Shown: piece after piece, positions 44,203-64,000 of the stretch
Layout of the letters: each line of letters opens with the position of its first letter
Numbering within the stretch: position 1 is the first letter of the stretch
Notes under the pieces: model-generated
The model's database searches: none
Told to the model about the DNA's origin: nothing
The model's input: the letters and a program-made list of their open reading frames with translations, nothing else
Source of the DNA: Nitrosopumilus sp.
Lineage (GTDB): Archaea > Thermoproteota > Nitrososphaeria > Nitrososphaerales > Nitrosopumilaceae
Length of the DNA stretch: 64,000 bases
Assembly (NCBI GenBank): GCA_965204345.1
Contig: OZ241981.1
Span: 224,001-288,000 of the forward strand
Direction: 5' to 3'
Translations under genes and position numbers: made by a program

Positions 44203-44431
44203 AAGACATAGCAGATAATCGCTCTCCTTAAACCTTCATCAATATCTAAATAGAGAAAATCTAAAAAGGAACTGGTAAGTTAGCGGGGCATGACTACAAA
44301 TCTTATTCCTGGAAAGCCTCGGGGCTTTTATTTATCTGACTTTATGTGATGGTTCTGTTAACTTATTGAGTATTTGATATCCGATCTTCTTCGTGTTAAC
44401 TGTCGGTACCTAGAAATAAAAAAACTGGTTT

Positions 44432-45376: not shown

Positions 45377-45450
45377 TTTTTATTTGTTCGATTGCATCCA
45401 ATATTCGACTTTGATTATCTTTCAGTCTTTTCTTTGTTGGAATCTTATTG

Positions 45451-46755: not shown

Positions 46756-46922
46756 CTCAATGGTTTGACATGGATCACCATTTCACCATCTTTTACGGTG
46801 ATCTCCCAATCCAGTTTATCCTTTTCCTTCAGTTTAAAGTGAGTGGTAATACTTTGTGGAATCGTGGTTCTCAAACTAATGGATGTTGTAGTGGCTTTAT
46901 TGATCGACGTTATATCCCCCAT
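46752..46922 (-). CDS. 56-aa AbrB/MazE-like DNA-binding protein (absent from the ORF track)
   Basis: SLRTTIPQSITTHFKLKEKDKLDWEI; ATGA overlap with the MTase start. Confidence 0.82.
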   Translation of the reverse strand: MGDITSINKATTTSISLRTTIPQSITTHFKLKEKDKLDWEITVKDGEMVIHVKPLR

Positions 46923-47014
46923 AGGTAACTAGATAAGACATTGCCATTTATAGTTACCTACCAATAAGTTACCTATAGTGTTACCTTTATTAATAGGTAA
47001 AGATATAGGTAACT
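46921..47014. promoter_or_regulatory. Divergent promoter region with six AGGTAA(C) operator-like repeats
   Basis: taggtaact, agttaccta twice, gttacctt, taggtaaa, taggtaact within 94 bp. Confidence 0.7.
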
Positions 47015-48148
47015 ATGAATGAAAGAGAAATTAGAGGAAAACAAATTGCAGAAAAACAGGATCAGATTAGACGACTAAATGAAACTCATTATGAGGTTAA
47101 CAGTCAGTCAAGAAGAATAACACATGACGTTGTTGGCACTGAATTAGGCTGGTCTTGCAGCTGCGAGGATCATAATTTTAGAAAAATCTGCTGTAAGCAC
47201 ATTCATGCAGTAGAGATCTCACTTAATCTTCATCAAAAGGTAAAAGATGATGTTGTAATTTCAGAAGTGGTAATTGACTGCTGCAAGTATTGCAAATCAC
47301 AAAATATTGTAAAACGAGGCATACGAAAAAACAAGAGTGGTAATATCCAAATATTCTGCTGTAAGGACTGCACACGCAAATTCTCAATTAATCTAGGTTT
47401 TGAGGGAATGAGGGCAACGCCTGACCAGATAACAATGGCTATGAATTTGCGTTTTAATGGTGAATCCTCACGCAAAGTGGCACATTCATTAACCCTTACA
47501 GGTGTTAAAATATCTCATATCACTGTCCAAAACTGGAACAAGAAATATGTCAATCTCATGGAAAAGTATCTTGATAAGATAACCCCACAAGTAGGTGAAC
47601 AGTGGAGAACAGATGAGTTATACCTGAAAATCAAGGGCGATAAAAAATACCTCTTTGCAATGCTTGATTCAGAAACCAGATTTTGGTTATCTCAAATGGT
47701 GTCAGAACACAAGGGACATGATGATGTATCTCCAATGTTTGTACAAGCTAAAAAGAAAGCAAAGAAAGTTCCTAAAACTCTAATTTCAGACGGAGCTGCA
47801 AACTTTCATCATGCTTGGAAAAAACAGTACAAAGCTAAAAACTATCTTCACAAAAAAACAGAACACCGCAGGCATATACACTTGTCAGGGGATATGAACA
47901 ACAACCAGATGGAATCCTTCAACTCAAACACATTACGAATGAGAGAGAAAGTAACAAGAGGAATCAAAAAAGATGATTCTGCAATACTCAAAGGTATGCA
48001 GATTCACCACAACTACATAAGACCACATCAAGGACTAGATGGAGATACACCAGCAGATAGATCAGGGATTAAAATTATGGGTGATAACAAGTGGAAAACT
48101 ATCATTCAAAATGCATCTTCTAAAAGCCCCGAGGCTTTCCAGGAATAA
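47015..48148 (+). CDS. IS6-family DDE transposase with N-terminal SWIM and zinc-ribbon domains
   Basis: CSC...CKH SWIM; CKYC...CKDC; WRTDELY, ISDG, NNQMESFN; RPHQGL..TPA. Confidence 0.88.
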   Translation: MNEREIRGKQIAEKQDQIRRLNETHYEVNSQSRRITHDVVGTELGWSCSCEDHNFRKICCKHIHAVEISLNLHQKVKDDVVISEVVIDCCKYCKSQNIVKRGIRKNKSGNIQIFCCKDCTRKFSINLGFEGMRATPDQITMAMNLRFNGESSRKVAHSLTLTGVKISHITVQNWNKKYVNLMEKYLDKITPQVGEQWRTDELYLKIKGDKKYLFAMLDSETRFWLSQMVSEHKGHDDVSPMFVQAKKKAKKVPKTLISDGAANFHHAWKKQYKAKNYLHKKTEHRRHIHLSGDMNNNQMESFNSNTLRMREKVTRGIKKDDSAILKGMQIHHNYIRPHQGLDGDTPADRSGIKIMGDNKWKTIIQNASSKSPEAFQE

Positions 48149-48358
48149 GATTTGTACACTGTTCAATCTTAGGGGCTTTTCAACTGGGTGTTAAATTAGG
48201 GTCTTTTTGTGTTAAGTTAGGTGCTTTTCGTATTGAAAAAATAAGTAACTGTTCAAAACTCGGGACATGGAATCAATCTTCTAATCCAAAAGATGACCTA
48301 ATGCATTCTGCGTCATCATTGTAATCTTGGAGAGGGCATGTACTAAATTTACAAAAAA

Positions 48359-49447
48359 TCAGATTCGATCTAAGATTTCTTGTGTATATTTACCATCAAA
48401 TTTTTCGACATTGTCATGCATGCCACAATCAAACACATAGTCACAATATTTCAGGCATTTTCGTGGGTTGCCATTACTTTTTTCATATATTACCTTGAAA
48501 AATTCAGGACTGATAAAAGGCCAAGATTTGTGAGGCAATGTTTCTGCATGATTAGTTCTATTTTCTTTAATTCTGTCCACAAGCAGTATTTCAGTATTTT
48601 TCTCTGAGAGAGGAAGTAACTCAATTTTATTGATTTTTGGATTCACTCTATCCATCCAAGGAATTATTCCACCTCCACCTTTTCTTGCCTCCATGTTTGT
48701 GAGAAATTCCCAACATCCCGGAGTCATGGCAATAATAAAAATTGTTTTTGCAAGAGAGTCAGGATTGTTTCCATATTCATCATAAATCTCCTTAAAGAAA
48801 TACAGTATTGCGTCAATCTGTTTTTGATTGTAAACAGTAACGACATACTCAAACTCATCAATTAGTAAATAGATATTTTCTATTTCTGCATGTTTTAGGA
48901 ATTTGAGAAAGTTATGAAATACAAGCAAGGCATCCCTACTTGTAAGTAGATTTGTTGAGATTCCAAGATCTCTTTTGTCTTTATCAGGCAAAGACTGTCC
49001 ACAAAGCCAATCATATGCAATACGCTTCTGATCCCGTATGCCATTGATGATTTTTTGGAAATTTGCATCAGCTAATCTTTGATCCAAGTTGGAGGATTTG
49101 CTGACAATCTCACACATTTTTGGGTATCCAATGTTTCTAAATGCACGTGTTACGATTGAGTGACCAATCTTTGTTTCGGCTTCACCCTCCACCAAACGCA
49201 TAGTAATAACAAGATTTTTTTGGTTATCTTTGATTTTTTTATCGCCAAGTCTTTCTCTGATTTTTTTAAGAAGTAAAGTTTTGCCAATGCCATAATCTCC
49301 AATAATCAAAAAGGTTCTACTGCCAACAAATTTCTTATCGATGAAATCATCAAGACGCCTCATCTCATCTTTTCTCCCTACAACAGGATAGTCCTGACGT
49401 AAATCATCAAAAAGACCATGTTTTAGATGAAAATCTTCAGCGGTCAT
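48359..49447 (-). CDS. AAA+ ATPase (BrxD/DUF2791- or Orc1/Cdc6-like)
   Basis: Walker A GDYGIGKT, Walker B LLIDEFE, DWLCG, SNGNPR. Confidence 0.8.
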   Translation of the reverse strand: MTAEDFHLKHGLFDDLRQDYPVVGRKDEMRRLDDFIDKKFVGSRTFLIIGDYGIGKTLLLKKIRERLGDKKIKDNQKNLVITMRLVEGEAETKIGHSIVTRAFRNIGYPKMCEIVSKSSNLDQRLADANFQKIINGIRDQKRIAYDWLCGQSLPDKDKRDLGISTNLLTSRDALLVFHNFLKFLKHAEIENIYLLIDEFEYVVTVYNQKQIDAILYFFKEIYDEYGNNPDSLAKTIFIIAMTPGCWEFLTNMEARKGGGGIIPWMDRVNPKINKIELLPLSEKNTEILLVDRIKENRTNHAETLPHKSWPFISPEFFKVIYEKSNGNPRKCLKYCDYVFDCGMHDNVEKFDGKYTQEILDRI

Positions 49448-50271
49448 TTTTCAGAAATTGTCAAAAAATGGTAATAAGTCTTGTTATGAAATATCCCGCC
49501 AACTTGTCGCACACCAGTCTCAGACAGGATAATTTTTTTGTCAGGCTTGTCAGTCATTGTTTTGATCAAATATTCTTTAAAATCCAGCGGTGTAAACCCC
49601 TTGTTCTTTAGTTTGGATGAAACCAGAGATTTGATCGAAGGAATTGATACATAGGTTCCCTTTTCTTTTTTGATTTTTTCGTATTCAGCATACAGTATTT
49701 TTTTAAATTCTTTTGAAGAAACTAGTTGAGGCTTGCTTTCTAATGCTTCTACCATGTTTGAATTAAAATGGTAGATTGGAGGTGAATAGGTCAGCAACTC
49801 ACAGTATGCAAGAAATTGCAACCATCTACGCAATTTGTCATCAGTTTTTTTGACTAGTGTGTCTTGTCTACCTAATTCTTCGACGAGGTCGTTATACTTC
49901 AAGTCTTTTTTTGTTTTTTTAAAAATGTCAAGAATGTGACATTTTTCATTATCTAATTGCAAAAGTATTCTAGATAATTCTTTTTTGTACATTTCAAGAC
50001 TATCGGAGATAGAATAAAGATACTTACCTTCTGGCGTCAATGTCACGTTTTGATTTTCACCTTGCAGTAACCGTAGTTTTCTGAGCGAATGCGTAACTCT
50101 TACTCTGAACGGATCAAGATGAGGGGATGCAATTTGTTTGCTGGTTTTTTTATAATGTTTAAGTGCCAATTGTTCTATCTCTTTGCGATTTCCTACATTT
50201 TCTTCAATTATTTTTAGCATTGGAAGTACATCAGTAGGAGAAATTTTTAGTGCTAGAAGAATGATTTTCAT
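49444..50271 (-). CDS. Hypothetical protein, probable tandem winged-helix DNA-binding protein
   Basis: SLRKLRLL...VTLTPEG wing motif, KLRRWLQFL; ATG 50271 overlaps the upstream stop. Confidence 0.6.
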   Translation of the reverse strand: MKIILLALKISPTDVLPMLKIIEENVGNRKEIEQLALKHYKKTSKQIASPHLDPFRVRVTHSLRKLRLLQGENQNVTLTPEGKYLYSISDSLEMYKKELSRILLQLDNEKCHILDIFKKTKKDLKYNDLVEELGRQDTLVKKTDDKLRRWLQFLAYCELLTYSPPIYHFNSNMVEALESKPQLVSSKEFKKILYAEYEKIKKEKGTYVSIPSIKSLVSSKLKNKGFTPLDFKEYLIKTMTDKPDKKIILSETGVRQVGGIFHNKTYYHFLTISEK

Positions 50272-51239
50272 GAAGATGGCCAACAATGATTAAAGTACGA
50301 ACATGATCTGCATTTTTCATCAGAATCGGGCTTTCCTGGATCCTTCTTGGTTTTCATCTGTTCCAGTAAATTTTGACGTCTTAAAAGAAATGCTTTCCTA
50401 TATCTGTCTTCAATCAAGATGACTTCAGAATTAAAGAAATGTGGAACATTACGTTTGTTTGCAAATTCAGGTGTTACAATCATTCCCAAGTTCATTGATT
50501 TGCCATATATTTTTTCATAAATTAATGCGTACCCACCCAATGTGTTTAGATATTCGTCTTTCCATGGAGGGGACTTGACATCAATGATAATTTTGTTATC
50601 AAACAGGAAATCAGGTTGCGCACTCTTAGTTATTCCAAAAGAGGATACAGTAAAGGAAGGTTTTGAAGCAAATGGAAATAAGTTCATAGACATTAAACTG
50701 ATATTGATATCTTTAGTTATTGATATTTTATAATCCAGCAATGCACTTGCTATTTGTGTCTCATAACGTAATGTTTGCTTTAACAGTAAAATGAAATCAT
50801 CAATTACAGGTTGGCTTGGAGAGTTTATTATTTTTGCCTTCTTGTCTTTGATTAACTTCTCTGCATAATCCATAAAATTACTACTATGAGAATCAAAATC
50901 AGTCATAATGTCGGCATTTTTTAAATTAACCGTATTGAGATAATTATGTAATTTTTTTATAAACTTGTCATACACCTTATCCAATATTTGTCCAGACAGC
51001 ATTTCCCATGTTTGTTCATGTTTTGCCTTAGGGACATACTTGTGCAGATATGCATAACGATCAGTAGGACAATATTTAATTGGAATCTGATTAAAAGGCA
51101 CAGACAAAGCAGATTCTCTAAAATCAGCTGGAACATCATTTTTTGGTCTATATCCACGAATGTGGATTTTATCCTCTGCTATTTTTTCTAATTCCTGGAT
51201 TTTGTTGGAATTAAGATTGTCTAAAACAAGCTTCATCAT
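50268..51239 (-). CDS. Cas4/Csa1-like PD-(D/E)XK nuclease with four Fe-S cysteines
   Basis: IRGY...KYCPTDR (Csa1-like), QPD...IIDVK, LGGYAL, DPG...CRSCSYFNHC. Confidence 0.82.
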   Translation of the reverse strand: MMKLVLDNLNSNKIQELEKIAEDKIHIRGYRPKNDVPADFRESALSVPFNQIPIKYCPTDRYAYLHKYVPKAKHEQTWEMLSGQILDKVYDKFIKKLHNYLNTVNLKNADIMTDFDSHSSNFMDYAEKLIKDKKAKIINSPSQPVIDDFILLLKQTLRYETQIASALLDYKISITKDINISLMSMNLFPFASKPSFTVSSFGITKSAQPDFLFDNKIIIDVKSPPWKDEYLNTLGGYALIYEKIYGKSMNLGMIVTPEFANKRNVPHFFNSEVILIEDRYRKAFLLRRQNLLEQMKTKKDPGKPDSDEKCRSCSYFNHCWPSS

Positions 51240-52447
51240 GGTTTTTTCAATATCACAATGTGTTCATTATAAATCCTGTTCGTAATATTTGCTCTTTTTA
51301 TGCCTAACCTATGAAATTTGATTTCGTCTAACATTTCTAATTTAAAATCAAATCCAGATTCTTCTCCCATACGGCGTAAAAATACATTTAATGGCACTCG
51401 TTGCTCCAATACTTTACTATTACCCACAATAATAGCACAATGTCCTCCGGATTTTAGCACTTTGTAAAATTTGTTCATTATTTCATGTAAATCATTAAAG
51501 TACTGACTAGTTTTAAGCCCATAAGAAGTAGATTTGGAATAAATTTTATCTATGAAATTATCAACCTCTTTGATTTGTGTATACATCAATTCCTTATCCA
51601 TACCAGAACTCAGTTCACCATGAATAGATTTTCGTGCTAATTTTCGATACTCCTCTACTGAACCATTATTTAACCAAAAATTTTCCAGTTTGGTACTACG
51701 AAAATATTCCATTGCAGAAAGATAGGGGGGTGATGTGACAATCATATCTACCCTTCGTCGTAAATTAATTTTTTTGACATCATCGCCAATGATCTGAGCT
51801 TTTGACTTTATATCAGAAATTTCATTTATACGATCAATATTGAAATCCAGTTGTAGTAGAAATTCGTTTAGTACATTAGGTGGGTGTGGTTGTTTTGCTA
51901 ATCTTGGCAGGATATCTCGCGGCTCTGCATTTGATACTTTTTTCACAATTGCAGAAAAACAAATCAAAAGAAAATCACGAATGTCATTATCAGTGTCAAC
52001 ATTATCTATCACATGTTTTATTTTTGCTAAATCATTTTGTGTCTTTTTAGTGAACCAAAAGTCTCGATTTTGAAATTGTGGAACAGTTACTTTTTTAGAT
52101 TTTTTTATATCCAAATAACACTGATGAGATTTTTTTTTAAGTTCGTCAACATCCAGTGGAGTTATTTTTACTTTGGAAATCAATCTAGCAATAGGATTCA
52201 ATTCTATACCAAGTGCATCACGCTGTAATAATATAGATTCCAACAACGTAGTTCCAGAACCACAGAATCCGTCCAAGATTGTATCATGTTCCTTGGAAAA
52301 TTTACTGATAAGATAATTTGGAATATGCGGAATTAATTTTGCAGGATATTTGTGAATGTGATGAGTTGCTCTGGTTCTTTTTGAAAGTTCAGGCATAAGT
52401 TCTTTAAAGTTTATTGGAATCGATTGTTTTTGTAAAAGTATAGACAT
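51236..52447 (-). CDS. DNA amino-methyltransferase (probably m4C)
   Basis: IHKYPAKLIP, DGFCGSGTT, GIELNP, VTSPPY. Confidence 0.9.
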   Translation of the reverse strand: MSILLQKQSIPINFKELMPELSKRTRATHHIHKYPAKLIPHIPNYLISKFSKEHDTILDGFCGSGTTLLESILLQRDALGIELNPIARLISKVKITPLDVDELKKKSHQCYLDIKKSKKVTVPQFQNRDFWFTKKTQNDLAKIKHVIDNVDTDNDIRDFLLICFSAIVKKVSNAEPRDILPRLAKQPHPPNVLNEFLLQLDFNIDRINEISDIKSKAQIIGDDVKKINLRRRVDMIVTSPPYLSAMEYFRSTKLENFWLNNGSVEEYRKLARKSIHGELSSGMDKELMYTQIKEVDNFIDKIYSKSTSYGLKTSQYFNDLHEIMNKFYKVLKSGGHCAIIVGNSKVLEQRVPLNVFLRRMGEESGFDFKLEMLDEIKFHRLGIKRANITNRIYNEHIVILKKP

Positions 52448-52999
52448 AATTTATCTCTCAAATTATTTTAAACTCTGAGTTGTGATCAATAATTGACTTT
52501 ATGATCGAATTTCTGGTCGTATTCTGTTTCTTTTGAATTTCTTTTTTGGGAATCTCTACAATAATTTTTTGACCAATAAAAATAGCAGGCATGCCGACTA
52601 TGCTACTTGTATCATTATTTTTTGTGACATGTTTTTGATAGTTAAAATGTGGATTCATTTTGTAATTCAAGTTTGTAAACCATATTTGTATTTAAGATGA
52701 CTTTGACACAAGATTATCATCAAATCACGGTTTTGCATCAGAACCAAGTTTGATGATACAGATACTTTGCACATCCCAATAATATCCAAAAACAACTTTC
52801 TGGTTCGTTTCTAATTGAAGATAAAGAGATAGTATCTGTTTTGTGTAGTTTATGTAAACAGTTCTCCCCTTGGACATACAACAAGTTTGATGAGGAGGAT
52901 CCAATTGCAGTTACAATATGGAATTTTATTTATTGACCGTGACACTTTAAACATGATATTGTGATTATTATAAATTCAGCCTAGCGATTAAAATAAAAT

Positions 53000-55096
53000 C
53001 TAGTTTGCCTGTGAGTCAAGCCATATGGTGTGTCGTATCTCGACAGGTTCTGTAGGAGCAGCAGATCCCATCTGAACCGTTATTCTAAATGGTATGGTTA
53101 TGGTCTGCTCGACTGCAGGCATGTCATATACTATGGAGTTTTGCTTGGTCTTCTCTATCTTGCTCCAGGAGTTATCTGCTGCACTGTACGTCTCTACCAG
53201 ATAATTTCTAAATAATGGCACATGATCCCATCCCAAATGTATGCGAGTTATGTCATTATCAGACGTGGAAGATGCGGCAGTATCAATTGCCCTGACACCA
53301 AAATTATCAGGTGACTCTAATGCAGATGGCATGGATATTGTAACTATGTCAGAGTATATCTTGTGCTGGCCTACCCGCTCAAATATTCTATATGAAATAT
53401 CCTGACCCAGCCATTCTGGTCGTATGGTATCCGATACAGTTCCGTTTCCGGCACTAAACTGCTCTACTATATTCTCACCATCCAGTCTCTGCATACGGTA
53501 TGTGTCATCACCAACTTCGTTACTGTCAGACCACTCTATGCTTATGGTATCAGAGCCTGCAATGTGGGATGCCTTTAACGCAAGATTGCTATCAAATGGC
53601 TCATCCCCGGTATTTACAAGGATGGTACTTTGTGTATTGTCATCTCCTCTTACTCCTACGGATACAAAGTATGCAGTGTCATCTTTGAGATTCTCAAAGG
53701 TGTAGTTGTGTATGCCTGCATCTACGATGTCAGTTGTTTTATCAGCAGGATTAGATACGGGGGCGATAACTATTTTGTATGGTTCCAGTTGTGTGGCATC
53801 ACCTGCCTCCCATGATACAGTTATGGTGCCATCCAATGAAGAATATTGCTTTGATGTAAACAGGACCGTATTTGGATTGCCATCATGCAACATGTCAAGA
53901 ATCTCAACCGTACTCAAATCATTAGTGTACGTATCAATGGCACCTGATGCACTACTGCCACCACCAGACACAGGTATCGTAACTACCTTGACATTATCAA
54001 TATGGAATGTAGAGTTGTCTGGGGATTGGGCCCACCCGAATATTAACAATCTACAGTGGCATTCACTAAAATCAATCAGTGGTACCCTGGCTGTAAACGT
54101 GTTAAACTCTGTTCCCACTGTTGGTTCCTGCGTGGTCTCCCATACGTATGTCTGATAAGAGGGAGTAAACGGACTTCCATCCCCAATCAGATACACCCTA
54201 AAATCGGCAGTGTCTGCTGTGTGCAGATAGTCAAATGAGAACTCCAGGTCGTGATTATCTGTAGGGGCATCAAGCTGGAAATATCTCTGCATGCCAATAT
54301 ATCCGACTCCGCATGCACCGTTAAAGTCAAAGTATGCAGAGCCATTGTTAACTGAGCTGTGTACCAGGCTGTGTCTGTTGGTGTCTGTTCTAACGCAGTC
54401 ATGTGAGGAGAACGTGTGTAGTGGAGCTCCCCAATTTCTCCAGGGATCAGTGTTATTATCAAATGTGTCATGCAGTACGGTGGTACTTTGTTTGATGGGC
54501 TCTTCATTTTTTATGATTATCTTTTGGATGGCAGTAGCCGTGTTTCCGGCAGTGTCAGTAACAGTCCAGGATACAGTAGAGTTTCCAATGCTGCGGCGCT
54601 CGTCTACATCACTGGTTATGAGGGGGGTATCATCAATGTTATCAGACGCAATGGCAAAACCCGTCTGGTCTTGATGCAGTATGACAGTTTCAGTATCTGC
54701 ATTAAGGGCATAACTAGGCGGGGCAGTTATGGTGGGTGCCACTCTGTCCTCGACTATGACTCGCTGGGCAGCAGAAGCAGTGTTTCCGGCAGTATCAGTA
54801 GCAGTCCAGACAATGGTGGTTACGCCTATTGGAAATATGTCAGGTGCGTTGTTAGTTATGACTGGTGCTGGTGTAGGATTGCCAATCAGCGTGGGCGTGC
54901 CAAGATTGACACTACTTTGAGATATGCCGTTACTTGATGTAGCTGTTAGGACTAGTCCGGGCGGAGCTGTAATGCGAGCAGTGGTCATGTTTGTGTCAGT
55001 TGAGCTTTGAGCAAAGGATTCAGCAGAATGCAACAGGATGCCTGCAGAGGCTATTACTGCCACTAAAGCTAGAACCCGTATCAATTTGATGTTCAA
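53000..55096 (-). CDS. Secreted HYR/fibronectin-III repeat surface protein
   Basis: Signal peptide; FPIGVTTIVWTATDTAGNTA HYR units; FN3-like TVSW...YTFENLKDDTAYFVSV. Confidence 0.8.
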   Translation of the reverse strand: MNIKLIRVLALVAVIASAGILLHSAESFAQSSTDTNMTTARITAPPGLVLTATSSNGISQSSVNLGTPTLIGNPTPAPVITNNAPDIFPIGVTTIVWTATDTAGNTASAAQRVIVEDRVAPTITAPPSYALNADTETVILHQDQTGFAIASDNIDDTPLITSDVDERRSIGNSTVSWTVTDTAGNTATAIQKIIIKNEEPIKQSTTVLHDTFDNNTDPWRNWGAPLHTFSSHDCVRTDTNRHSLVHSSVNNGSAYFDFNGACGVGYIGMQRYFQLDAPTDNHDLEFSFDYLHTADTADFRVYLIGDGSPFTPSYQTYVWETTQEPTVGTEFNTFTARVPLIDFSECHCRLLIFGWAQSPDNSTFHIDNVKVVTIPVSGGGSSASGAIDTYTNDLSTVEILDMLHDGNPNTVLFTSKQYSSLDGTITVSWEAGDATQLEPYKIVIAPVSNPADKTTDIVDAGIHNYTFENLKDDTAYFVSVGVRGDDNTQSTILVNTGDEPFDSNLALKASHIAGSDTISIEWSDSNEVGDDTYRMQRLDGENIVEQFSAGNGTVSDTIRPEWLGQDISYRIFERVGQHKIYSDIVTISMPSALESPDNFGVRAIDTAASSTSDNDITRIHLGWDHVPLFRNYLVETYSAADNSWSKIEKTKQNSIVYDMPAVEQTITIPFRITVQMGSAAPTEPVEIRHTIWLDSQAN

Positions 55097-58000
55097 CTTG
55101 TAGTGGCACCTCCATCTTCTGCATTTGCCTGACTAGTTGATATTGTAATGCCTGTCCTTGTGGAATCATCCCCTGTTACCTGTACTGTTACCATGTATTG
55201 GGTGTCCGGTTCTAGTCCTGCAAACATGTGTTGGAGATTGTTATTATTATCAGATGCCAAGACACTGTGTGTTGTTATATCATCGGGATTGGATACTGGC
55301 CATGCAGATACGGTATAGTCATGCGTATAACTGTCATCTATGTCGTCCCATCCTATGCCGATGCTGTTGTTGTTACTATCATCATCCTGAACATATTTTG
55401 CAGATATGATTATCCTGTCATAGTATAATGATTCGGCAATGAATTTTTCCAATTCTGCAACTGTAAGCATGTTTGTTGGTCTGTCTGCCGGTATTTCACT
55501 GTCACCAGATGCCCCAGAGGATGCAGGTTTAGTCATTGCAAGGTGTACGTTATCAATATGCGTGTACAACGGCAACACTTGATCACCCCTGTCAAATCTG
55601 TACAGCTGTATGACACACGGACAACGATCCACATCAAATCCGTTACTCTGTACAATTGTGGTCTGCCAGTGATTGCCCCTTATGTCTATTGAATCATGGG
55701 TTACTAGTTTGGCAGTGCCAAGTACCTGTCCTGTATTGCTGACAATGGCAACATACAGTATGTGTGATTGGGGATCATCTAAGATGTGAATGTGCTCTGT
55801 GACCATTCTAAAGTTATGGTTATCAAATTTATCTGCAATGTCCACTGTCTTGTACATTATGGATGCAGACACCCCGCAGTCATGCTCTCGGTATATCTGG
55901 GCCGAGCCGCCATACTGCTCACTGTACCTTGCACCGTACAGGCTAGTGGGAGCAGGATCACACTGCTCGTCTTGAATTTCATGTGGAACATAGTGACGCT
56001 GTATCCACGAATCAAGCGAGTCATCAAAGGTGTCATGGAATATCTGATTTGCAGTAACTGCCGTACTGTTTTGGACTGTGACATTTTGGTTTAGTTGTGC
56101 AATGTTTCCGCTGGGATCTATTGTGGTCCATTCTACGATGTTGGCCCCTAGCTCAAGCAGGTAATTGTCAAGAAAGATTGGCGGTGATGAGCGATTTACT
56201 AGTAGCTGGTTGTCATGGTATTGGGCAATCCGGGTATCTCCTGTGTTAAAGGGTGTTATCTGCTGGGTGGTATCTATTGTAACTGCAGCAGATAATGTCA
56301 GGCCCGGTGATACGTTATCATGTATTACTATCCACTGGTTTGCAGTTGCGTTGTTTCCATAGCTGTCAGTGGCAACCCATACAACCTTGGTGATGCCAGG
56401 AGAGAATGCCGCAGGTGCGTTGTTTGTTATGACGGGATTAGAATCCATATCATCCTGTACTATGGGTGTGCCAAGCTCTTGAGGTGGCAAAACCACACTC
56501 TGATCTGTCGTGATGATTATCTTTGATGCAGGAGCCGTAATGCTTGGAGGGCTGTCAGCAGCTCTTGATATGATTACACTAAAGGATATAGTTGCCGTAT
56601 TGCCGGAGCTGTCACGCGCAATACACGATACAGTGGTAGAGCCGACAGGGAATATGCGTGATGATGATGGTGATGGTATGCATGTCACAGTAACGTTGGG
56701 ATCTTCGGCATCTGTGGCTGTTGGCAGATCAAACATGACTGTTCTTCCTTGCATGTCAGGGGATACCAGCAGGATATCAGACGGTGTGTGCGTAAATGTC
56801 GGAGGATTCCTATCTCGGACAGTCACCGTCTGTGTGAGAGTTGCGGTATTTCCAGAATCATCAGTGGCAGTCCATACAATGTTGTGTGTTCCAACGGCAA
56901 ATGATGCAGTATCACTGGCAGTTACAGCAACAACGTCTGAATCCACTATGTCAGTTGCAGCTGGCGCGCTTATTGATACGGGTGTAAGTACAGCAGTAGC
57001 ATCCACAGTTATTGGTGCAGGCTGTGCTATTGTGGGAGGAGTGGTATCCTCGATGGTTATTGTGCTAGTTATTGTAGATGTATTGCCTGATGTATCAGTT
57101 GCAGTCCATGTGATTATGGTATTGCCCAGTGGGAATGATGCAGGTGCGTTGTTTGTTATGGTAACATCAGACAAATCCGTTGCAGATGGGATGCCATAGT
57201 CTGCACTATTTAGCGGAGTCAATACGCCTGTTGCCTCAAATGTCATATCACGTATGGTGCCAAGCTGTGGCGGCATGGTATCCCGTATTGTGACATCTTG
57301 GGTCATACTAACAGAGTTGCCTGACGTATCAGTGGCAATCCATGTAACTGTTGTAGTGCCAATGGGAAACCTGTCAGGTGCGTTGTTTGTTATGGTAACA
57401 GGAAAGATATCTGATATTGTGGGGTTTGTCAGCCGTATTGCAGTAAATGATGAGGTAGCCTCTACTAGGATATTGGCAGGTTTTTGTATTACCGGCGGAG
57501 TCGTATCCCGTATGGTTATAACCTGAGTGTCTGTTGCAAAGTTTCGGGAGGCATCAGTTACAGTCCATCTTACTGTCGTATCACCCAGTGGGAAATCCCT
57601 TGGCGCATTGTTTGTTACAGGCAAGAGTCTGTTACCAGTTACCTCTGGCGTTCCAAGCTGTTCTGCGGTAAGACGTGTAAGTATGCCTGTTGCCTCTATT
57701 GTCTTATCTGATGGTGCAGTTATTTCGGGCATAGTAGCAGGCGTTGATATTATGTTTGTCACTCCGCTGGTACCCGAATTCAGATATGCTCTATTTATCA
57801 GAATGCTTGGTCCCGTATATGTCACAGTAATTTGCGTATCATATGGAATGTCTGCAACACGCATCGTTACTGCAGCAGAGTTTGCGCGATGAGACAATGA
57901 AGTAATTGTTCCATGGCTGATCTCAAAGTCAGAGGCATCCAGCCTAACTGGAATTCTCTCCATCAGGCTAAATGATATGCTTGTTCTCTCCGCGCCAAGA

Positions 58001-60138
58001 TGGGGTCTGAGAATGATGTCCGGCTCGGCAGGCGTAGGCTTGTATACCTTAAAGTTGTCTACTTCTACAAAGCCTTTATTTTCAGAGAGGTCCATTAGCA
58101 GACGCAGTTTTGCACTGCTTTGAGGTATTACCAGAGACAGGTATTCGCGCTCCCATTCGTCTGTGTCCTCGTCGTTGTTGCGGGTGTATTCTGCAAGCGT
58201 AGTCCATGTTGTTCCATCATTTATAGAATATTGGACATAAAGACCATTGTCATGCCTAACGAGTCTGTCTACAAATCTGTCAAAGGATATTGTAAGTGGT
58301 TGACGTGTATCAAACTGGGTAGGTATAGTTAAGATGCATAACCCGTTGCAATGATCAGATGACAATACTTTGTTCCTAGTATTGGTTGCAGGGAATATGA
58401 CTTCATCAGGAGTAATTGTTGATGCTCTACCATCACCTGTAATCCTCCACTTTGACAGTCCTCCTTGAAAATTCTCCTCAAAATTGGTAGTGATTGGTCC
58501 TGATATTGGCCTATAAGGTATGCTATTTGCATCAAGTGTTACCATGCCTCCTGAAGTAGGGGTCCTGATAACAGGATTTCCAAATATATCGCGTGCATTT
58601 GAGAATAATATTGAAAATGTGCCATCTTCCCCATCAAGCAGATGCGAGTATTCAAAGGTCGTATCTGATGTACGGGTCATCGTTCCGGTAGTTGACGTAT
58701 AGCCGTTTGTGATTGTAACATCAAGCGGAAAATTGGGGTTTATAATCTCATTAAACGTTGCAGAAATATCCAGACTTCCACTCTGCGGTATGTTTTGGGG
58801 CAGTGTCACATTGCCTGTCGGTCTTATGTCATCGTATGTCTGTGCCGGTCCGCGCAGTGATGCAATGTGTGGTGCTGTTGCAAATATTACTCTGGCATTC
58901 CAGCTGACATCATCACCTGCCCTATTGAGCGTACCAAAGAAATTTCTGAATGGATCCGACCATACTCTTTTTCTTGCACATATTTCTTCTACCTGAGTAA
59001 TTGGACTATCACAGTTGCCACCACTTGATGCCATTATTGTTCTTTGGAAAATGCCTGCATCATAATATCCATGACCCTTACTGAAATTTGGGTTTCTTTC
59101 CATGTCAATGTCGTATCCTGCCCCGTGCATAAGCCCTATTGCATTAGTTGCAGAGTATACAGCAAGACACTTTACGTCCACTACTGCAAATGCTGTACGT
59201 GTACTTCTAACAAGCTGCTGTGCAGTTTTAGAACATTCGTTATTCAAATCTTTACCAATATCATTACCATCAACATCATCATCATTAACATTAATGATAC
59301 TATCAACAAACATTATTGCAATATCTGCCTCTTCTCGTTCTATTAACGCACGAGCTGTTTTGAATTCACGCTCATCAGAGAATCGAAATTTATCAAGATC
59401 ATCTTTCAAGTCATCAGTCTCGACATATCCATCTATCCTAGTACGATCTACGAGATTGAGTTCAACTGGAATACCGTTTTGTCTATACGTACGATTTGTG
59501 TCATCTATTGCATTGGATGCGATGAGACGTATTGAGTTATGAAATTCGCTAACTGCATCCTCAGTTGCGGCTATGAATACATCTATGACCAGTTTTTCGG
59601 TAAATACATCATCGTAATCAAATCCTCCAATGTATGATTCCTTCAAGTGATTTATTTTATCCATGTCAAAGGATTGCTCACCACTTGCACCGGGCGGTAC
59701 AACAGTGTCAGGTGGAAACTGGGATTGATCAATGAGATACACTTCATGTGTTGTGGCCTCTACAGGAAACACCTGGAATGTTTTGTTTAATGTGTCTATT
59801 ATTCCCACTGCCTTTGTACCGCTTATTTCAAACATTGCAGTCTCTTCATCATTATTGGAACCTTTCCACAGATAGTTGCCATCTTCATAATGCTCCACAG
59901 AGTCTTTTGTGAAGGTTGTCGATTCTCCAAATATTGTAATGCTTAGATGTTCTGATGAGAAAATTTGCGTATCTATTGCTACCATCCTTGATTCAAAATT
60001 ATAGCCCTCAAAAACATCAAGTGATTCTAGCTCACTATCTGGCAAGGGTACAAACAGTTCAGATGTCTGTGCATATGCGTGTCCGATACTCATAACTGCA
60101 AATATTGTTAGTAGGAGGGCAAGCAAATTAGTCAACAC
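55093..60138 (-). CDS. 1681-aa secreted multidomain protein: degenerate reprolysin-like (M12B) domain, multiple HYR repeats, FN3
   Basis: Signal peptide; READIAI...AFAVV...GHGY...RTIMA metzincin scaffold; repeated NNAPxxFPxGxTxxxWTATDxSGN; FAGLEPDTQYMVTV. Confidence 0.82.
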   Translation of the reverse strand: MLTNLLALLLTIFAVMSIGHAYAQTSELFVPLPDSELESLDVFEGYNFESRMVAIDTQIFSSEHLSITIFGESTTFTKDSVEHYEDGNYLWKGSNNDEETAMFEISGTKAVGIIDTLNKTFQVFPVEATTHEVYLIDQSQFPPDTVVPPGASGEQSFDMDKINHLKESYIGGFDYDDVFTEKLVIDVFIAATEDAVSEFHNSIRLIASNAIDDTNRTYRQNGIPVELNLVDRTRIDGYVETDDLKDDLDKFRFSDEREFKTARALIEREEADIAIMFVDSIINVNDDDVDGNDIGKDLNNECSKTAQQLVRSTRTAFAVVDVKCLAVYSATNAIGLMHGAGYDIDMERNPNFSKGHGYYDAGIFQRTIMASSGGNCDSPITQVEEICARKRVWSDPFRNFFGTLNRAGDDVSWNARVIFATAPHIASLRGPAQTYDDIRPTGNVTLPQNIPQSGSLDISATFNEIINPNFPLDVTITNGYTSTTGTMTRTSDTTFEYSHLLDGEDGTFSILFSNARDIFGNPVIRTPTSGGMVTLDANSIPYRPISGPITTNFEENFQGGLSKWRITGDGRASTITPDEVIFPATNTRNKVLSSDHCNGLCILTIPTQFDTRQPLTISFDRFVDRLVRHDNGLYVQYSINDGTTWTTLAEYTRNNDEDTDEWEREYLSLVIPQSSAKLRLLMDLSENKGFVEVDNFKVYKPTPAEPDIILRPHLGAERTSISFSLMERIPVRLDASDFEISHGTITSLSHRANSAAVTMRVADIPYDTQITVTYTGPSILINRAYLNSGTSGVTNIISTPATMPEITAPSDKTIEATGILTRLTAEQLGTPEVTGNRLLPVTNNAPRDFPLGDTTVRWTVTDASRNFATDTQVITIRDTTPPVIQKPANILVEATSSFTAIRLTNPTISDIFPVTITNNAPDRFPIGTTTVTWIATDTSGNSVSMTQDVTIRDTMPPQLGTIRDMTFEATGVLTPLNSADYGIPSATDLSDVTITNNAPASFPLGNTIITWTATDTSGNTSTITSTITIEDTTPPTIAQPAPITVDATAVLTPVSISAPAATDIVDSDVVAVTASDTASFAVGTHNIVWTATDDSGNTATLTQTVTVRDRNPPTFTHTPSDILLVSPDMQGRTVMFDLPTATDAEDPNVTVTCIPSPSSSRIFPVGSTTVSCIARDSSGNTATISFSVIISRAADSPPSITAPASKIIITTDQSVVLPPQELGTPIVQDDMDSNPVITNNAPAAFSPGITKVVWVATDSYGNNATANQWIVIHDNVSPGLTLSAAVTIDTTQQITPFNTGDTRIAQYHDNQLLVNRSSPPIFLDNYLLELGANIVEWTTIDPSGNIAQLNQNVTVQNSTAVTANQIFHDTFDDSLDSWIQRHYVPHEIQDEQCDPAPTSLYGARYSEQYGGSAQIYREHDCGVSASIMYKTVDIADKFDNHNFRMVTEHIHILDDPQSHILYVAIVSNTGQVLGTAKLVTHDSIDIRGNHWQTTIVQSNGFDVDRCPCVIQLYRFDRGDQVLPLYTHIDNVHLAMTKPASSGASGDSEIPADRPTNMLTVAELEKFIAESLYYDRIIISAKYVQDDDSNNNSIGIGWDDIDDSYTHDYTVSAWPVSNPDDITTHSVLASDNNNNLQHMFAGLEPDTQYMVTVQVTGDDSTRTGITISTSQANAEDGGATTS

Positions 60139-60253
60139 ATTTCGTCCAAAGAGGGCTGTATATCAAAATTTGCATCCTGAGAATCTGTTTTTGGTCATAT
60201 ATGAATGATCAAGCTTTATTTTTTGAGATGTAATAACAATATTCATATCTGTT

Positions 60254-61678
60254 TTATCTTATCTTGGCATGTTCTGGAATGTTTATCTTGTCAATCCAGT
60301 CATCTATTACCGGAGTGCGAGTAAACCAGCCAATCTCTCCTGTAATACCCTCCATGCGAAGATATAATGTCTCTGCAGGATAAGTAATATTTGCAGGATA
60401 ATTACTATTTGAAGAATAATCCTTAATCATATCACAAGTTCCCACATCTGCTTCCCATATGGGAATCCCTGCTCGGAAGGATACAACTGAAATTTTTTTG
60501 ATATCATCCTTGCTATCGTATAGGACAATGTTATCACACTTAGGTTGGTGGAAACAATCATGATATCGTTTCTTATCATCCTTGCTATCGTATAGGGTAA
60601 GGTCGCACCATTCTCGTTCTATTACGTGTGCATTGTCAATAGCAAACTGATGCATTAATTGACGCATCATATCTTTTGACAACGGAGTAAAGTGAGGTTC
60701 TTCCTTATATAGAAAATACATGTACACGTTATTCCATTGCATTCGCATGTCTATTTTACCATTTTCAAGATATATCCATGAACGGTCAAAATCATGTTGC
60801 GTCTTTACTATCCTTGGCAGTCCTGATTTTTCTACAAAGTTTTGTATGAATTTTTCTGGACCTGCCGTTAGACTTTTGGCAAATGCAAGCTCATCCTTTT
60901 GGTCAAGGGAGTCATATTCGTCCCATTTTTTATCCAAATAATCTGACCTGAATATTTCATCAGGTTCTAATATTATCAGCTCTATTTGATTACTGTAGAA
61001 TGGACTGATAATGTTTCCTTTTTCTGTATAGTATGTATAGTTCATCTTATGTCCTCGAGATCCTCCAGGCGCAGGTTCAAGAGTATAGTCATATCTTGGA
61101 CCTTCAGAATTTGGAAGTATCAGTTTGTCATCTATACCATCAAGTATTTTCTGCATGATGCGCTCATAGTTTTCTATGGTTGTGGGAAGGTAGACACCTT
61201 TAGGAAGTGGTTCAATTACAGATAGGTCTATACCGCCAGAACTACGTGCAATAATGTACGGGTCTCCCAAATGAGGATAGTATGTCTCTGTCTGTACAGG
61301 ATCAGAGACAGCATCTGAGCTGCCCTCTGTCTGGTTGCTAGTAGTTGCCATAGGCAGCTCAGCAGTTGGCAGCTCATCAAATATTTTTATCATATGCCAG
61401 CCGCGCTCTACCAGTATGTCGGCCGTATCACTTTTCACACATACAGGCTTGTTGTTCCTAGGAGATTCCAGCAGAATCTTTTGATACTCACACTGGATTT
61501 CATAGAGCGGTACGCCTGATTTTAGCTGCTCATAGGGGGAGGCAATCTCAGCATATGCACTGGCAACTCCAAAAATGGATACAATGGATATGGCAAGCAG
61601 AATCCGCATCGGTTTGTTGGTTTTTTGGCATACTATATTAGAAGTGCTATCAAATGCTTTGTTGTTTTCCAAAGCCAA
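60254..61678 (-). CDS. Secreted protein with SPxxQ...IxC...PxCVK...ERGW surface domain
   Basis: Signal peptide from MRILLAIS (likely real start); SPYEQLKSGVPLYEIQC...PVCVKSDTADILVERGW. Confidence 0.75.
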   Translation of the reverse strand: MALENNKAFDSTSNIVCQKTNKPMRILLAISIVSIFGVASAYAEIASPYEQLKSGVPLYEIQCEYQKILLESPRNNKPVCVKSDTADILVERGWHMIKIFDELPTAELPMATTSNQTEGSSDAVSDPVQTETYYPHLGDPYIIARSSGGIDLSVIEPLPKGVYLPTTIENYERIMQKILDGIDDKLILPNSEGPRYDYTLEPAPGGSRGHKMNYTYYTEKGNIISPFYSNQIELIILEPDEIFRSDYLDKKWDEYDSLDQKDELAFAKSLTAGPEKFIQNFVEKSGLPRIVKTQHDFDRSWIYLENGKIDMRMQWNNVYMYFLYKEEPHFTPLSKDMMRQLMHQFAIDNAHVIEREWCDLTLYDSKDDKKRYHDCFHQPKCDNIVLYDSKDDIKKISVVSFRAGIPIWEADVGTCDMIKDYSSNSNYPANITYPAETLYLRMEGITGEIGWFTRTPVIDDWIDKINIPEHAKIR

Positions 61679-62033
61679 AGGAAACGCAAAATCAATTTTG
61701 AGAATAAATATGAAAAATGCGCCAAAAAATGCACAATTGGTTCATCTGATGGTACGATTGGTCAAGCAGATTAGAAGCATATTTGAGACTTGGCTATGAA
61801 GATTAACAATCCAGAGTCTGATTATAAAATTAACATTTGCACATGAACCCCTAGTTGGAAATACAGAGAGAGTCTTTATTTTTTTCAACACACAACAGAA
61901 AAAACCTCTCTAGTTTTCCCCACATCCAAAATCAAGCCATATTTTTCTCTCTTGTTTAATTTTTTAATTTCCCTAAGAGTTCTGGTTTCCATCGTCTCTC
62001 ATAATCGATTTTTTCACTGACTGCCATGAATCA

Positions 62034-62171
62034 TCACTTTGATTTTTTTGGAGTGCGATCCCAGTAGACATTTTTGCACTTGGCACATCTTAGCGGCTTT
62101 TCACCGTCGCGTGAGAGCCACTCATGACCGCATCTGCAACATTTCCATACGCTGCGTGTAACTGTTGGCAT
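62034..62171 (-). CDS. 45-aa zinc-finger protein divergent from transposase 2 (absent from the ORF track)
   Basis: MPTVTRSVWKCCRCGHEWLSRDGEKPLRCAKCKNVYWDRTPKKSK. Confidence 0.8.
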   Translation of the reverse strand: MPTVTRSVWKCCRCGHEWLSRDGEKPLRCAKCKNVYWDRTPKKSK

Positions 62172-62222
62172 CACCGAAGGTGATTACTACTCATATAAAA
62201 ACATTCACTGAAGGTGATCACC
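62171..62222. promoter_or_regulatory. Repeated quasi-palindromic TCAC(C/T)GAAGGTGA sites in the divergent promoter
   Basis: tcaccgaaggtgat at 62171 and tcactgaaggtgat at 62205. Confidence 0.6.
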
Positions 62223-62267
62223 ATTAATATCAAAATTTAAATACACTGTTAGGGTTCACTAATAGTT

Positions 62268-63620
62268 ATGTACACAAACAGTAAAAGAAAACAAAAGGCA
62301 GCACAGATCTTCTCAAAGGCAAACTCGATTAGAAAGATTACAAGCAATCACTATGTTGTAAAATCACAAAACTCTGATAAAAAATATAACGTCAAAAAAT
62401 TACAGGATGCAGATGTATGGACTTGTGAGTGCAAAGACTTTCATTACAGGTTAAGAAAATTAGATGAGAAGCACTGCAAGCATATAGAATCATGCATCAT
62501 ATTACAGGATGCCATTCAGACCCAAAGCAGGGTAGAGAGAACAGAACAGCCTCAGGTCTGTCCAAAATGCAGCTCCACTACAATAGTCAAACGCGGATTT
62601 AGGAAACTAAAGAACGGTACAAAGAGGCAAAAATATGGCTGCAAGCAGTGCAATCGTAAATTCATCCTGGGCGAGAACGGATTCTCCAAAGTTTCATCTG
62701 ATCCAAAAATAATTTCCGAGTGTCTTAATCTGGTCATGTCTGGTGTCTCATACAGAAATATTGCACGACATGTCTACTCTGCACACGAGGTTGGGATTAG
62801 TCATGTGTCTGTGAGGAACTGGATGAAGAAATACACCCGAATAATCAAAGAGTATGTGGAATCATTTTATCCCGAATTATCTGATGTGTGGAGCTTGGAT
62901 GAGATGTATCTGAATGTCAAAAATACAAAGAAGACAGGCAAGGGATTTCATGACTGGCTTTGGAGCATAATTGATCCAAAGACTCGATTTCTGATAGCTA
63001 CTGAGGTCTCAAAGAAAAGAGAGATTGCAGATGCAAGAAAGATTATTGCAAGCGGCAAGAAGGTAGTTGCCAAGAACCCAAACTATGTTCTGACTGATTC
63101 GCTAAACTCGTATCAGGAAGCAATCAGAAAAGAATTTGAAAACAGAGCTGCACACATCAGGACAAAGTCACTCAAGGACGGCTTTGTTAACAGGCCAATA
63201 GAGAGATACCACAATGAGATTAGAGAGAGGCTAAAAGCCAGACGTGGGCTGGGCAATGATGAATCTGCACAAAACTTTGCAGAGTTACTCAAAATCAATC
63301 ATAACTTTGTAAAGCCCCATCAGGGGCTAGGTGGCAAGACGCCTGCTCAAGCTGCAAATATTGACTTGAATCTAGGTCAAGACAAGTATCTGGATCTGAT
63401 AAAACAGGCGGGAACCAAAGTGAACTTTGTAAACAATCTGGGAAAGAGAATCAAGAAGGTATCCATAGTAAATGAGGGTGATTCGATAAAAATAACGCCA
63501 AAACGCTGGATCGATAAACACATCTGGCGTGAGATTAATGATATTCTAAGGCTGCATGAGTTTAGCTGGCTGTCCAATGGCAAGGATAGCTGTTGGCTCA
63601 AACTAGTTTCCTCAAGATAG
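62268..63620 (+). CDS. IS6-family DDE transposase with SWIM, zinc ribbon and an extra C-terminal domain
   Basis: CEC...CKH; CPKC...CKQC; WSLDEMY, LTDS, NRPIERYHN; KPHQGLGGKTPA; ~65-aa extension. Confidence 0.88.
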   Translation: MYTNSKRKQKAAQIFSKANSIRKITSNHYVVKSQNSDKKYNVKKLQDADVWTCECKDFHYRLRKLDEKHCKHIESCIILQDAIQTQSRVERTEQPQVCPKCSSTTIVKRGFRKLKNGTKRQKYGCKQCNRKFILGENGFSKVSSDPKIISECLNLVMSGVSYRNIARHVYSAHEVGISHVSVRNWMKKYTRIIKEYVESFYPELSDVWSLDEMYLNVKNTKKTGKGFHDWLWSIIDPKTRFLIATEVSKKREIADARKIIASGKKVVAKNPNYVLTDSLNSYQEAIRKEFENRAAHIRTKSLKDGFVNRPIERYHNEIRERLKARRGLGNDESAQNFAELLKINHNFVKPHQGLGGKTPAQAANIDLNLGQDKYLDLIKQAGTKVNFVNNLGKRIKKVSIVNEGDSIKITPKRWIDKHIWREINDILRLHEFSWLSNGKDSCWLKLVSSR

Positions 63621-63896
63621 TTTCCTAAAACTAGACATCAAAGTATTCAATCAAGAAATAGTCAAAATACTAAAACCATAGAATTTCTTAAAGTAGAATC
63701 ATGTCGTTATGGGGAATCCGCCTTAACTTATTGGTCTGTTATGGGATTTACTTGAAGTAGATTCCAAGATTTGCAAAAACAGTGATTAAAAATCCCGTTT
63801 ATTTCTTCAATATGAAAAGCGCCTAACTTAACACAAAAAGACCCTAATTTAACACCCAGTTGAAAAGCCCCTAAGATTGAACAGTGTAAAGATTTG

Positions 63897-64000
63897 TACA
63901 CTGTTCAATCTTAGTGTCATTTGCCTGTTTTAAACAGACTGTTCAATTCGAGTGATGGGTGTTAAGTTAGGGTGATGACAGATTCAAAAAAATTCACACT
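63897..64000 (+). mobile_element. Probable end of a third related element continuing beyond the window
   Basis: TACACTGTTCAATCTTAG (18 bp identical to the element 2 terminus) directly after the TSD, then further TGTTxAA motifs. Confidence 0.6.

Follow-up and report, generated by a model that had tools for sequence, protein, structure and literature searches.

The stretch of DNA analysed here, hereafter the window, comprises 64,000 nt of a Nitrosopumilus sp. genome of 2.12 Mb and 38.7% GC (G000:C1:224001-288000), and near its right-hand end two long inverted repeats enclose a transposase gene together with restriction-like and surface-protein genes. This arrangement raises the question of whether the enclosed DNA is one mobile unit, to which transposons it is related and why it stands where it does. 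DNA nearly identical to the region is present in sponge metagenomes. The original prediction described a large, non-composite transposon of the insertion sequence (IS) family IS6. On the evidence presented below this element, referred to as A (window 48155-63888, 15,734 bp), is very probably a genuine unit transposon bounded by terminal inverted repeats (TIRs) and belongs to a widespread Nitrososphaerota family, the single transposase of which combines a SWIM-like finger, a zinc (Zn) ribbon, a helix-turn-helix and a DDE domain and is distantly related to IS6.

Boundaries of the element and its position in a nest

When the tips of A are aligned directly, TIRs of 90 bp with three mismatches are obtained, as had been predicted, the initial 67 bp being identical (left TIR 48155..48244, forward strand; right TIR 63799..63888, reverse strand); a repeat search of the window returned arms of 95 nt and 95% identity (48150-48244 and 63799-63893). 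The exact 8-bp sequence AAGATTTG lies directly outside both tips (48147..48154 and 63889..63896), in agreement with the predicted target-site duplication (TSD), but the octamer is present three times, a second element, B, following A. Each end contains three sites, at positions 7, 36 and 57 (GTTCAATCTTAGG, GTTAAATTAGG and GTTAAGTTAGG), which bears out the claim of three internal motifs per TIR; the fixed-spacing pattern TGTTMANNTTAGG found no match because the spacing of the half-sites varies, and a looser pattern recovers all three. The terminal 18-mer, TACACTGTTCAATCTTAG, occurs four times in the window where 0.12 occurrences are expected, a count reached by none of 100 shuffled sequences.

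Between these ends lies exactly one transposase open reading frame (ORF; 62268-63620), as originally stated, so that one pair of TIRs, a TSD, a transposase and unrelated genes inside are all present in A, the layout of a unit transposon or of an IS with passenger genes. A composite origin through an inner end was considered and rejected: the 18-mer search of the window found no additional copy inside A, and the only candidates are a 17-nt fragment (62087-62104, within a small Zn-ribbon ORF) and the sequence TACACTGTTAGGG upstream of the transposase start. The non-composite structure proposed earlier is thereby upheld. The latter sequence (window 62243-62256) is a shortened copy of the terminal site placed about 10 bp upstream of the start codon and conserved in A2, the closest paralogue of A in the genome; it may be a site of autoregulation or the relic of an older left end.

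The two arms might in principle derive from independent elements, a solo end or a miniature inverted-repeat transposable element (MITE) plus an IS, in which case the 15.7 kb would never have been mobile as a unit. Such solo or fragmentary ends are common, the genome containing 32 matches to the 18-mer if as many as 3 mismatches are allowed, many of which have no partner. This explanation is nevertheless extremely improbable: the arms of A are the only A-type 90-bp arms in the genome that pair with each other, the exact 8-bp direct repeat stands at their tips, no inner end accompanies the transposase gene apart from the 17-nt fragment in the small ORF, and the element precisely interrupts a TIR belonging to another transposon.

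That transposon, C, is a restriction-modification element that measures 3,916 bp after subtraction of A, B and two octamers, with perfect 63-bp TIRs of tip GGAACTGG, and A sits inside its right TIR. The left TIR of C (44268..44330, forward strand) is preceded by the left copy of its own 8-bp TSD, TCTAAAAA (44260..44267), the right copy of which lies beyond the window (genome 305633-305640). The cargo of C consists of a CfrBI-type restriction endonuclease (44432..45376, reverse strand; PF09516, 197.9 bits) and an N6/N4 DNA methyltransferase recognized by Pfam (45451..46755, reverse strand), followed by a transposase of 377 aa with a SWIM finger, a Zn ribbon and DDE_Tnp_IS240 (47015..48148, forward strand). 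The inner part of the right TIR (48121..48154, forward strand) is severed by A, and its outer 29 bp reappear after B (genome 305604-305632).

Element B begins at 63897 (63897..64000 in the window, forward strand) and extends to genome 305595 (genome 287897-305595; 17,699 bp), with arms that are identical over the first 131 bp. Its left flank is the second AAGATTTG and its right end is again followed by the octamer, which accounts for the three copies. The left flank of A (…TAAAAGCCCCGAGGCTTTCCAGGAAT-AAGATTTG) and the right flank of B (AAGATTTG-TAGTCATGCCCCGCTAACTTACCAGTTCC), taken together, form a perfect inverted copy of window 44268-44330, and excision of A, B and two of the three octamers rebuilds a perfect 63-bp TIR with C's own TSD TCTAAAAA. 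The left TIR of C retains the octamer once and intact at 44297-44304, where it reads CAAATCTT (reverse complement of AAGATTTG) and is flanked by two direct CTGG(T/A)AAG...GGGGC sites; A and B are therefore precise insertions that each duplicated the same 8 bp, and this left TIR is an internal equivalent of the empty site. The search for an empty site suggested by the prediction thus has an answer within C itself, whereas no true empty allele of the locus was present among the genomes and contigs examined.

Since A and B share their terminal 18-mer and stand just 8 bp apart, they could also have arrived jointly, as one 33-kb composite bounded by the left end of A and the right end of B. This seems very unlikely. 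The ends of the two elements diverge after 18 bp and their transposases are merely 81% identical; the inner octamer equals the outer TSD, so that a prior hit on the same octamer elsewhere would still be needed and the composite does not remove the target specificity. Separate insertion of A and B into C is preferred here. In the prediction the near-identity of the TIRs was taken as a sign of recent insertion; TIR identity is not an insertion clock, and the evidence for recency lies instead in the perfect TSDs and in the TIRs of C, which are perfect apart from the interruption by A and B.

Relatives in other genomes and kinship with IS6

A profile-guided scan of one genome per species recovered the transposase's relatives at 79 loci, which lie with few exceptions in Nitrososphaerota, Bathyarchaeia or other archaea. 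Each locus was compared with itself to detect inverted repeats on both sides of the transposase gene; for the TSDs, comparisons with a displaced right flank served as control. Inverted repeats were found around the gene in 30 loci, and in 18 of these an exact 8-bp direct repeat adjoins the tips, as against 0 of 1488 displaced controls; other copies bounded by TIRs and TSDs, which the prediction had proposed to look for in related genomes, do therefore exist. The delineated elements with a TSD measure 1.97-5.9 kb and have TIRs of 23-86 nt, the range reaching 8 kb if a TIR pair without TSD is counted. The proposed class of large unit transposons is thus real as regards the unit and not as regards the size, relatives being usually of 2-6 kb; A and B are outsized members swollen by blocks of surface-protein genes.

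Relatives at four other Nitrosopumilus loci (L020, 5.9 kb; L022, 4.4 kb; L024, 4.3 kb; L030, 4.8 kb) share with A the terminal 18-mer, perfect TSDs and transposases that are 75-87% identical. Nucleotide similarity between A and L020 (80-82%) is confined to the left TIR and to 61900-63888, which defines a backbone of about 2.1 kb and a cargo slot between the left TIR and the Zn-ribbon ORF. The conserved right-hand module of about 2 kb comprises this small ORF, the transposase gene and the right TIR. Across lineages three direct sites about 21 bp apart are found per end, and their sequence shifts in step between lineages (for instance GTTAA.TTAGG in A and L020, GGTCA.TT.GGGTGAT in L025 and L027), the pattern that transposase-binding sites would show.

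Within the clade of A, restriction or methylase genes occur in 8 of the 9 delineated elements with scanned ORFs (L023 and L034 being outside this count). The cargo consists of type III Res and Mod in L020 and L021, MvaI/BcnI with a methyltransferase in L022, HaeIII with a D12 methylase in L024, MT-A70, Mrr and an SNF2 helicase in L025, a methyltransferase with GIY-YIG in L027, a HaeIII fragment in L030, EcoRI methylase with GmrSD/HNH in L087, and nothing other than a 119-aa ORF without family in L032. More distant members carry HEPN, PIN, HicB-like, proteasome-like or unassigned genes. In L025 and L027 a 92-aa ORF occupies the place of the 45-aa Zn-ribbon ORF of A, and in L024 (11346-11714) and L027 (11355-11720) the transposase gene and the right TIR are separated by a small ORF encoding a GIY-YIG nuclease.

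The transposase of A (62268..63620, forward strand, 450 aa) comprises a CxC..CxH finger, a four-cysteine ribbon and a DDE domain (D211, D277, E312, then R319). In an alignment (A1), C53, C55, C70 and H72 of the SWIM-type finger, C98, C101, C125 and C128 of the ribbon and the three catalytic residues are invariant in 10 of 10 homologues, and R319 is nearly so. The SWIM-zinc-ribbon-DDE architecture originally assigned to A is supported by this alignment, whereas the Pfam match to SWIM (47015-48148) belongs to the transposase of C, outside A; the two proteins are 31% (tblastn) or 32% (A1) identical. Both are recognized by Pfam DDE_Tnp_IS240 (PF13610; 51.6 bits for A and 55.8 bits for C, cut-off 27).

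As to the family, the best match in a plasmid collection is a 340-aa IS6-family transposase of Clostridium perfringens (28% identity over 308 aa, E 9e-35), and among the 25 plasmid matches listed every row that names a transposase names the IS6 family. The NCBIfam model transpos_IS6 scores 105.8 bits for A and 101.6 bits for C and the equivalog cut-off of 125 is missed by both; NCBIfam IS1 (75.3 bits, cut-off 100) and IS1_IS1595_Zn (21.2, cut-off 28) are likewise below threshold, and DDE_Tnp_IS1595 is matched by C alone (19.3, cut-off 27). Close homologues in public records are labelled "IS1/IS6 family transposase" or "DDE-type integrase/transposase/recombinase". Insertion sequences with passenger genes (tIS), of the IS1595 and IS1/ISMhu11 groups, also combine an N-terminal Zn ribbon, an 8-bp TSD and passenger genes within their inverted repeats (IRs). 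From these A differs in a catalytic domain that scores far better on IS240/IS6 models, in its SWIM-like finger, in its three-site ends and in cargo size.

Among the IS6 clades described by Varani et al. (2021; PMC7986276), clade h has a Zn finger and 340-350 aa, and clade i has the finger and a further N-terminal extension, with 450 aa; the C. perfringens protein fits clade h. According to the account of these clostridial clades in the same review, they share with A the DDE_Tnp_IS240 core, a K/R seven residues after the E and an N-terminal Zn finger. The 8-bp TSD (in A, B, C and 18 of the 30 related TIR pairs) and the CTGTT and CAA near the tips are further common traits with IS6. The differences are considerable: the present elements are archaeal and their TIRs measure 23-131 bp with three repeated sites, as opposed to the IRs of 15-20 bp given in the review's description of IS6 (PMC7986276), where the tips are GG, a feature found here in C-type tips whereas those of the A/B type are TA. 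IS6 elements measure about 0.7-1.8 kb and contain the transposase gene only, in contrast to A, with 15.7 kb and 8 further genes, and to its relatives of 2-8 kb, mostly with cargo; just one member of the family, with one passenger gene, is named as an exception in the review (PMC7986276). IS26-type pseudo-compound transposons resemble A in their IS6-related transposase, their 8-bp duplications and the movement of adjacent genes, but their cargo lies between two directly repeated IS copies (as outlined in PMC7986276), whereas that of A is bounded by a single pair of inverted ends with a single transposase gene. Harmer and Hall, where they discuss such long IS6 forms, doubted their family membership (PMC6807381). 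The IS6 assignment of the prediction therefore needs to be narrowed: the small size and the NCBI score cut-off are missed, the ends fit the IS6 pattern in part, with motifs in common but longer IRs, and, judged from the protein, membership would amount to distant kinship only.

Tn7-like transposons generate a TSD of 5 bp and, like Tn5053-like elements, pair an rve-type TnsB/TniA with an AAA+ TnsC/TniB protein that all members retain. Neither group offers a better model, as A has an 8-bp TSD and no TnsA/B/C set; an ATPase and a Cas4-like nuclease in its cargo were considered as TnsC/TnsA-like partners and rejected, since sibling elements lack them, the TniB score of 17.2 bits is below the cut-off of 22.4 and the module that contains them also occurs, in two other genomes, with no family end in the 20 kb read. 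The absence of the ATPase from siblings identifies it as cargo. Likenesses to the Tn7-like transposons with defence cargo described by Benler et al. (2021; PMC8649781) are the multi-site ends, the defence-rich cargo slot and the site-directed insertion. Element A works as a unit transposon, or IS with passenger genes, that is kin to IS6 and is not Tn7-like.

Other ends and fragments of the family were also observed. The transposase-proximal end of A2 adjoins an inverted B-type subterminal fragment (genome 332139-332178, L014), that is, family ends lie within family ends. At genome 37392-39063 (L016) a 1.67-kb unit without transposase and without matching 8-bp flanks holds a paralogue of the WING-49 gene of A (see below), bounded on the left by an A-like end and on the right by a different, "D-type" end of the family. 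A further end with a degenerate tip and TACACTGTTCAATCTTAG 59 nt inside lies, partnerless in the window, at 35220-35296; ends of this kind contain the motif CACTGTTCAAT twice. Direct and inverted repeats of 75-113 nt, 75-89% alike, surround a histidine kinase/response regulator pair (window 30440-30620, 33425-33596 and 35524-35602) and may be MITE-like. In L107, two 60-bp units (1442-1501 and 2551-2610) made of two facing C-type tips (GGAACTGGTAAGTTA...TAACTTACCAGTTCC) look like miniature C-type derivatives.

Probable target hot spot and proposed mode of movement

The octamer AAGATTTG has 264 copies in the genome, both strands counted, and A and B both occupy the one in C. Of 151 genomes of the genus, 3 contain the junction AAGATTTG|TACACTGTTCAA, each time in a C-type TIR, the TIR and the orientation differing between them. 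In G143 the transposase-proximal TIR of a further C-type element is occupied by a type III element of 5.9 kb, oriented oppositely to A; in G144 an element of the same kind has entered yet another C-type element, in its transposase-distal TIR, and 18-19 bp are deleted on one side. Vacant C-type TIRs with CAAATCTT are represented by the left TIR of C and by L105. That the octamer is also occupied in C-type TIRs of two further genomes, in arrangements unlike that of A and B, indicates a hot spot for insertion. The flanks of L024 share TAGTCATGC with the TIR of C, about 3 bp off register, which hints at a fifth hit on a C-type TIR; the insertions of L022, L030 and L087 lie elsewhere, so the site is a hot spot and not an exclusive target.

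In C-type TIRs the octamer (positions 30-37) is placed between the direct CTGG(T/A)AAG…GGGGC repeats, which resemble the first site of A, CTGTTCAATCTTAGGGGC. That A and B entered the same 8 bp between repeats resembling transposase sites points to targeting directed by the sibling end. We tentatively suggest, as a possible and not yet probable explanation, that family members home to the spacer between two putative transposase-binding repeats of a sibling TIR through cross-recognition of the sibling end or of the transposase bound to it. A comparable case is that of IS4321 and IS5075 (IS1111 group): with a DEDD-type enzyme and without forming a TSD, they enter the TIRs of Tn21-family transposons at a single position. 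The fixed position inside another transposon's TIR is common to both systems, whereas the present elements have a DDE transposase and an 8-bp TSD, insert in both orientations and target a sibling of the same transposase family.

In the mechanism proposed from these sequence features, the transposase would bind the three sites spaced by about 21 bp at each end, the ends would synapse and DDE catalysis would join them to target phosphates 8 bp apart, repair of the 8-bp stagger giving the duplication; the choice of target would be steered by the sibling end, either by cross-binding or through a bent, protein-bound spacer. For the route of movement we lean slightly towards a replicative one, with an IS6-like cointegrate resolved by host recombination, because of the kinship with IS6, the lack of a TSD in 12 of 30 TIR pairs and the deletion that adjoins L034. 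Cut-and-paste transposition is a quite plausible alternative, if the somewhat less favoured one, as A is a classical TIR-bounded unit with a TSD in place of directly repeated IS copies and contains no resolvase. The nearest characterized relatives, on the other hand, belong to IS6, whose members are reported to form cointegrates in the review's account of their transposition (PMC7986276), and the 18-19-bp deletion at one end of L034 and the pairs without TSD are outcomes of intramolecular replicative events or of recombination between copies; the latter process would yield the same pattern of deletions and missing TSDs.

Several observations weigh against the interpretation of A as a unit transposon of this family that was drawn to a sibling end. 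Short-read sponge contigs across 44100-64000 break at repeats and none bridges the C|A or the A|B boundary, and the exact locus without A is absent from all genomes and contigs examined. A TSD is missing in the 12 TIR pairs already mentioned; the closest paralogue, A2 (genome 332175-335521, 91% identical), has one recognizable end, its second end having been searched for in the genome and not found; and the best C-type relative in other genomes is 85% identical. The hot spot is based on about four events in three related genomes, which are not strictly independent lineages, site binding, chemistry and targeting are read from sequence, and the surface-gene block of A, described below, could have entered after the insertion.

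Cargo genes and their meaning for symbiont genomes

The left part of the cargo, encoded on the reverse strand like the rest of it, is a four-gene module that takes the place held by the restriction-modification pair in sibling elements. It encodes an AAA-type ATPase (BrxC/BrxD-like, AAA_16; 48359..49447; Pfam, PADLOC and NCBIfam), a 280-aa protein with a weak AAA_assoc_C match and nothing else (49444..50286), a Cas4/Csa1-like nuclease that has a D..DVK motif and, at the C-terminus, a CxxCx5C cluster (50268..51239) and an N6/N4 DNA methyltransferase matched by type II methyltransferase models (51236..52447). From its position and content the module reads as a putative restriction-like defence system; PADLOC matched no system in this module beyond weak single-gene hits. 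Of 150 further genomes of the genus, 3 contain these four genes in unchanged order; in one of the three a family end lies 1.3 kb beyond the methylase, and in the other two none is present in the 20 kb read. In these Nitrosopumilus genomes (L121, G159:C2:1702001-1722000; L122; L123) the order is kept at 53-80% protein identity, and the module may be an undescribed defence system.

The captured surface block of about 9 kb (52949..61900) contains two HYR/fn3 surface proteins (53000-55096 and 55093-60138) and a secreted WING-49 protein (60254-61678). The prediction of three surface proteins holds for the two HYR/fn3 proteins, whereas the third, of 474 aa, has a signal-peptide-like N-terminus and an NCBIfam WING-49 domain and no Pfam family. 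The WING-49 gene has at least 10 copies, often in tandem beside HYR genes (window 60254-61678; genome 131037-136252, 293965-297053 and 1796211-1799328), and these could be substrates for recombination; a literature search on WING-49 found no paper. To the right of the block, divergent from the transposase gene, the Zn-ribbon ORF of 45 aa with a CxxC...CxxC motif (62034..62171) belongs to the conserved backbone and is kept in A2. Genome 136216-143747, together with adjacent WING-49 genes, is colinear with the block and shares 92.5% identity with it; the block appears to have been copied from, or to be shared with, that chromosomal cluster. The cargo of B consists of a similar surface block and two subtilases, and since the block sits beyond a truncated inner copy of the right end, B seems to have been enlarged through adoption of a distal end.

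Contigs of sponge origin from three DNA runs of different studies and one RNA library match parts of A at 90% identity or more, and one of 4.2 kb (48278-52500) shows zero differences from the window. A contig of run X7 joins 52989 to 63789 and represents a form that lacks both the surface block and the transposase; the short side of the joint measures 77 nt, 5 nt fit either side, and the window sequences share GATTAAAA there. Contigs of the RNA library cover the ATPase gene, the surface genes and the transposase gene (62304-63249), which is not proof of transcription, and stretches left uncovered in that library are likewise uninformative. Joints from 48268 to 56859 and 57485 were rejected, their 21-nt sides looking like cross-mapping of paralogues. 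The joint from 48365 to 61830 (side 34, depth 4.7, one contig) is a possible cargo-less form, too weak to be used. Contig depth differs between C and A; depth is not copy number and nothing was drawn from it.

These data bear on the possibility that A entered C as a small element of about 6-7 kb, made of the defence module and the transposase, and gained the surface block in place by recombination with a chromosomal paralogue. The similarity of the block to the chromosomal cluster, the homology offered by the numerous WING-49 copies, the size of family members elsewhere (2-8 kb) and the block-less X7 contig from an independent sponge metagenome, though it also lacks the transposase, all speak for such growth. 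We nonetheless consider it unlikely: A2 shares the junction between transposase module and WING-49 at 91% identity, so this junction is older than the split of A and A2; the left boundary of the block, at 52949, has no visible homology partner; and the X7 contig retains 40 bp of the block, which suggests a deletion from an A-like form.

Comparative studies report that sponge-associated Thaumarchaeota are enriched in restriction-modification systems and that transposases are far more numerous in some of their genomes; one of these studies treats the two enrichments separately and calls the cause of the transposase excess unclear (PMC7848895). A survey of the thaumarchaeal mobilome regards IS-like transposons as elements of one or two genes (PMC6563490). 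No description of the present elements was found in a literature search, the scope of which lay outside supplementary tables that might list IS copies. The family described here physically unites the two enrichments, as a family of DDE transposons with defence genes as standard cargo that can swell to 16-18 kb through clusters of surface-protein genes and stacks into nests at a defined site. It provides a concrete vehicle for variation of defence genes and the cell surface in an uncultured symbiont and, with long ends that lend themselves to dissection and an apparent 8-bp-precise target preference, a compact one-protein system. If the suggested homing to sibling TIRs is true, it would be a DDE/TSD counterpart of the TIR-hunting by IS1111-type elements, defence and surface-gene islands in these archaea would self-assemble as transposon nests, and the joint rise of restriction-modification genes and transposases in sponge-associated Thaumarchaeota would have a mechanical reason.

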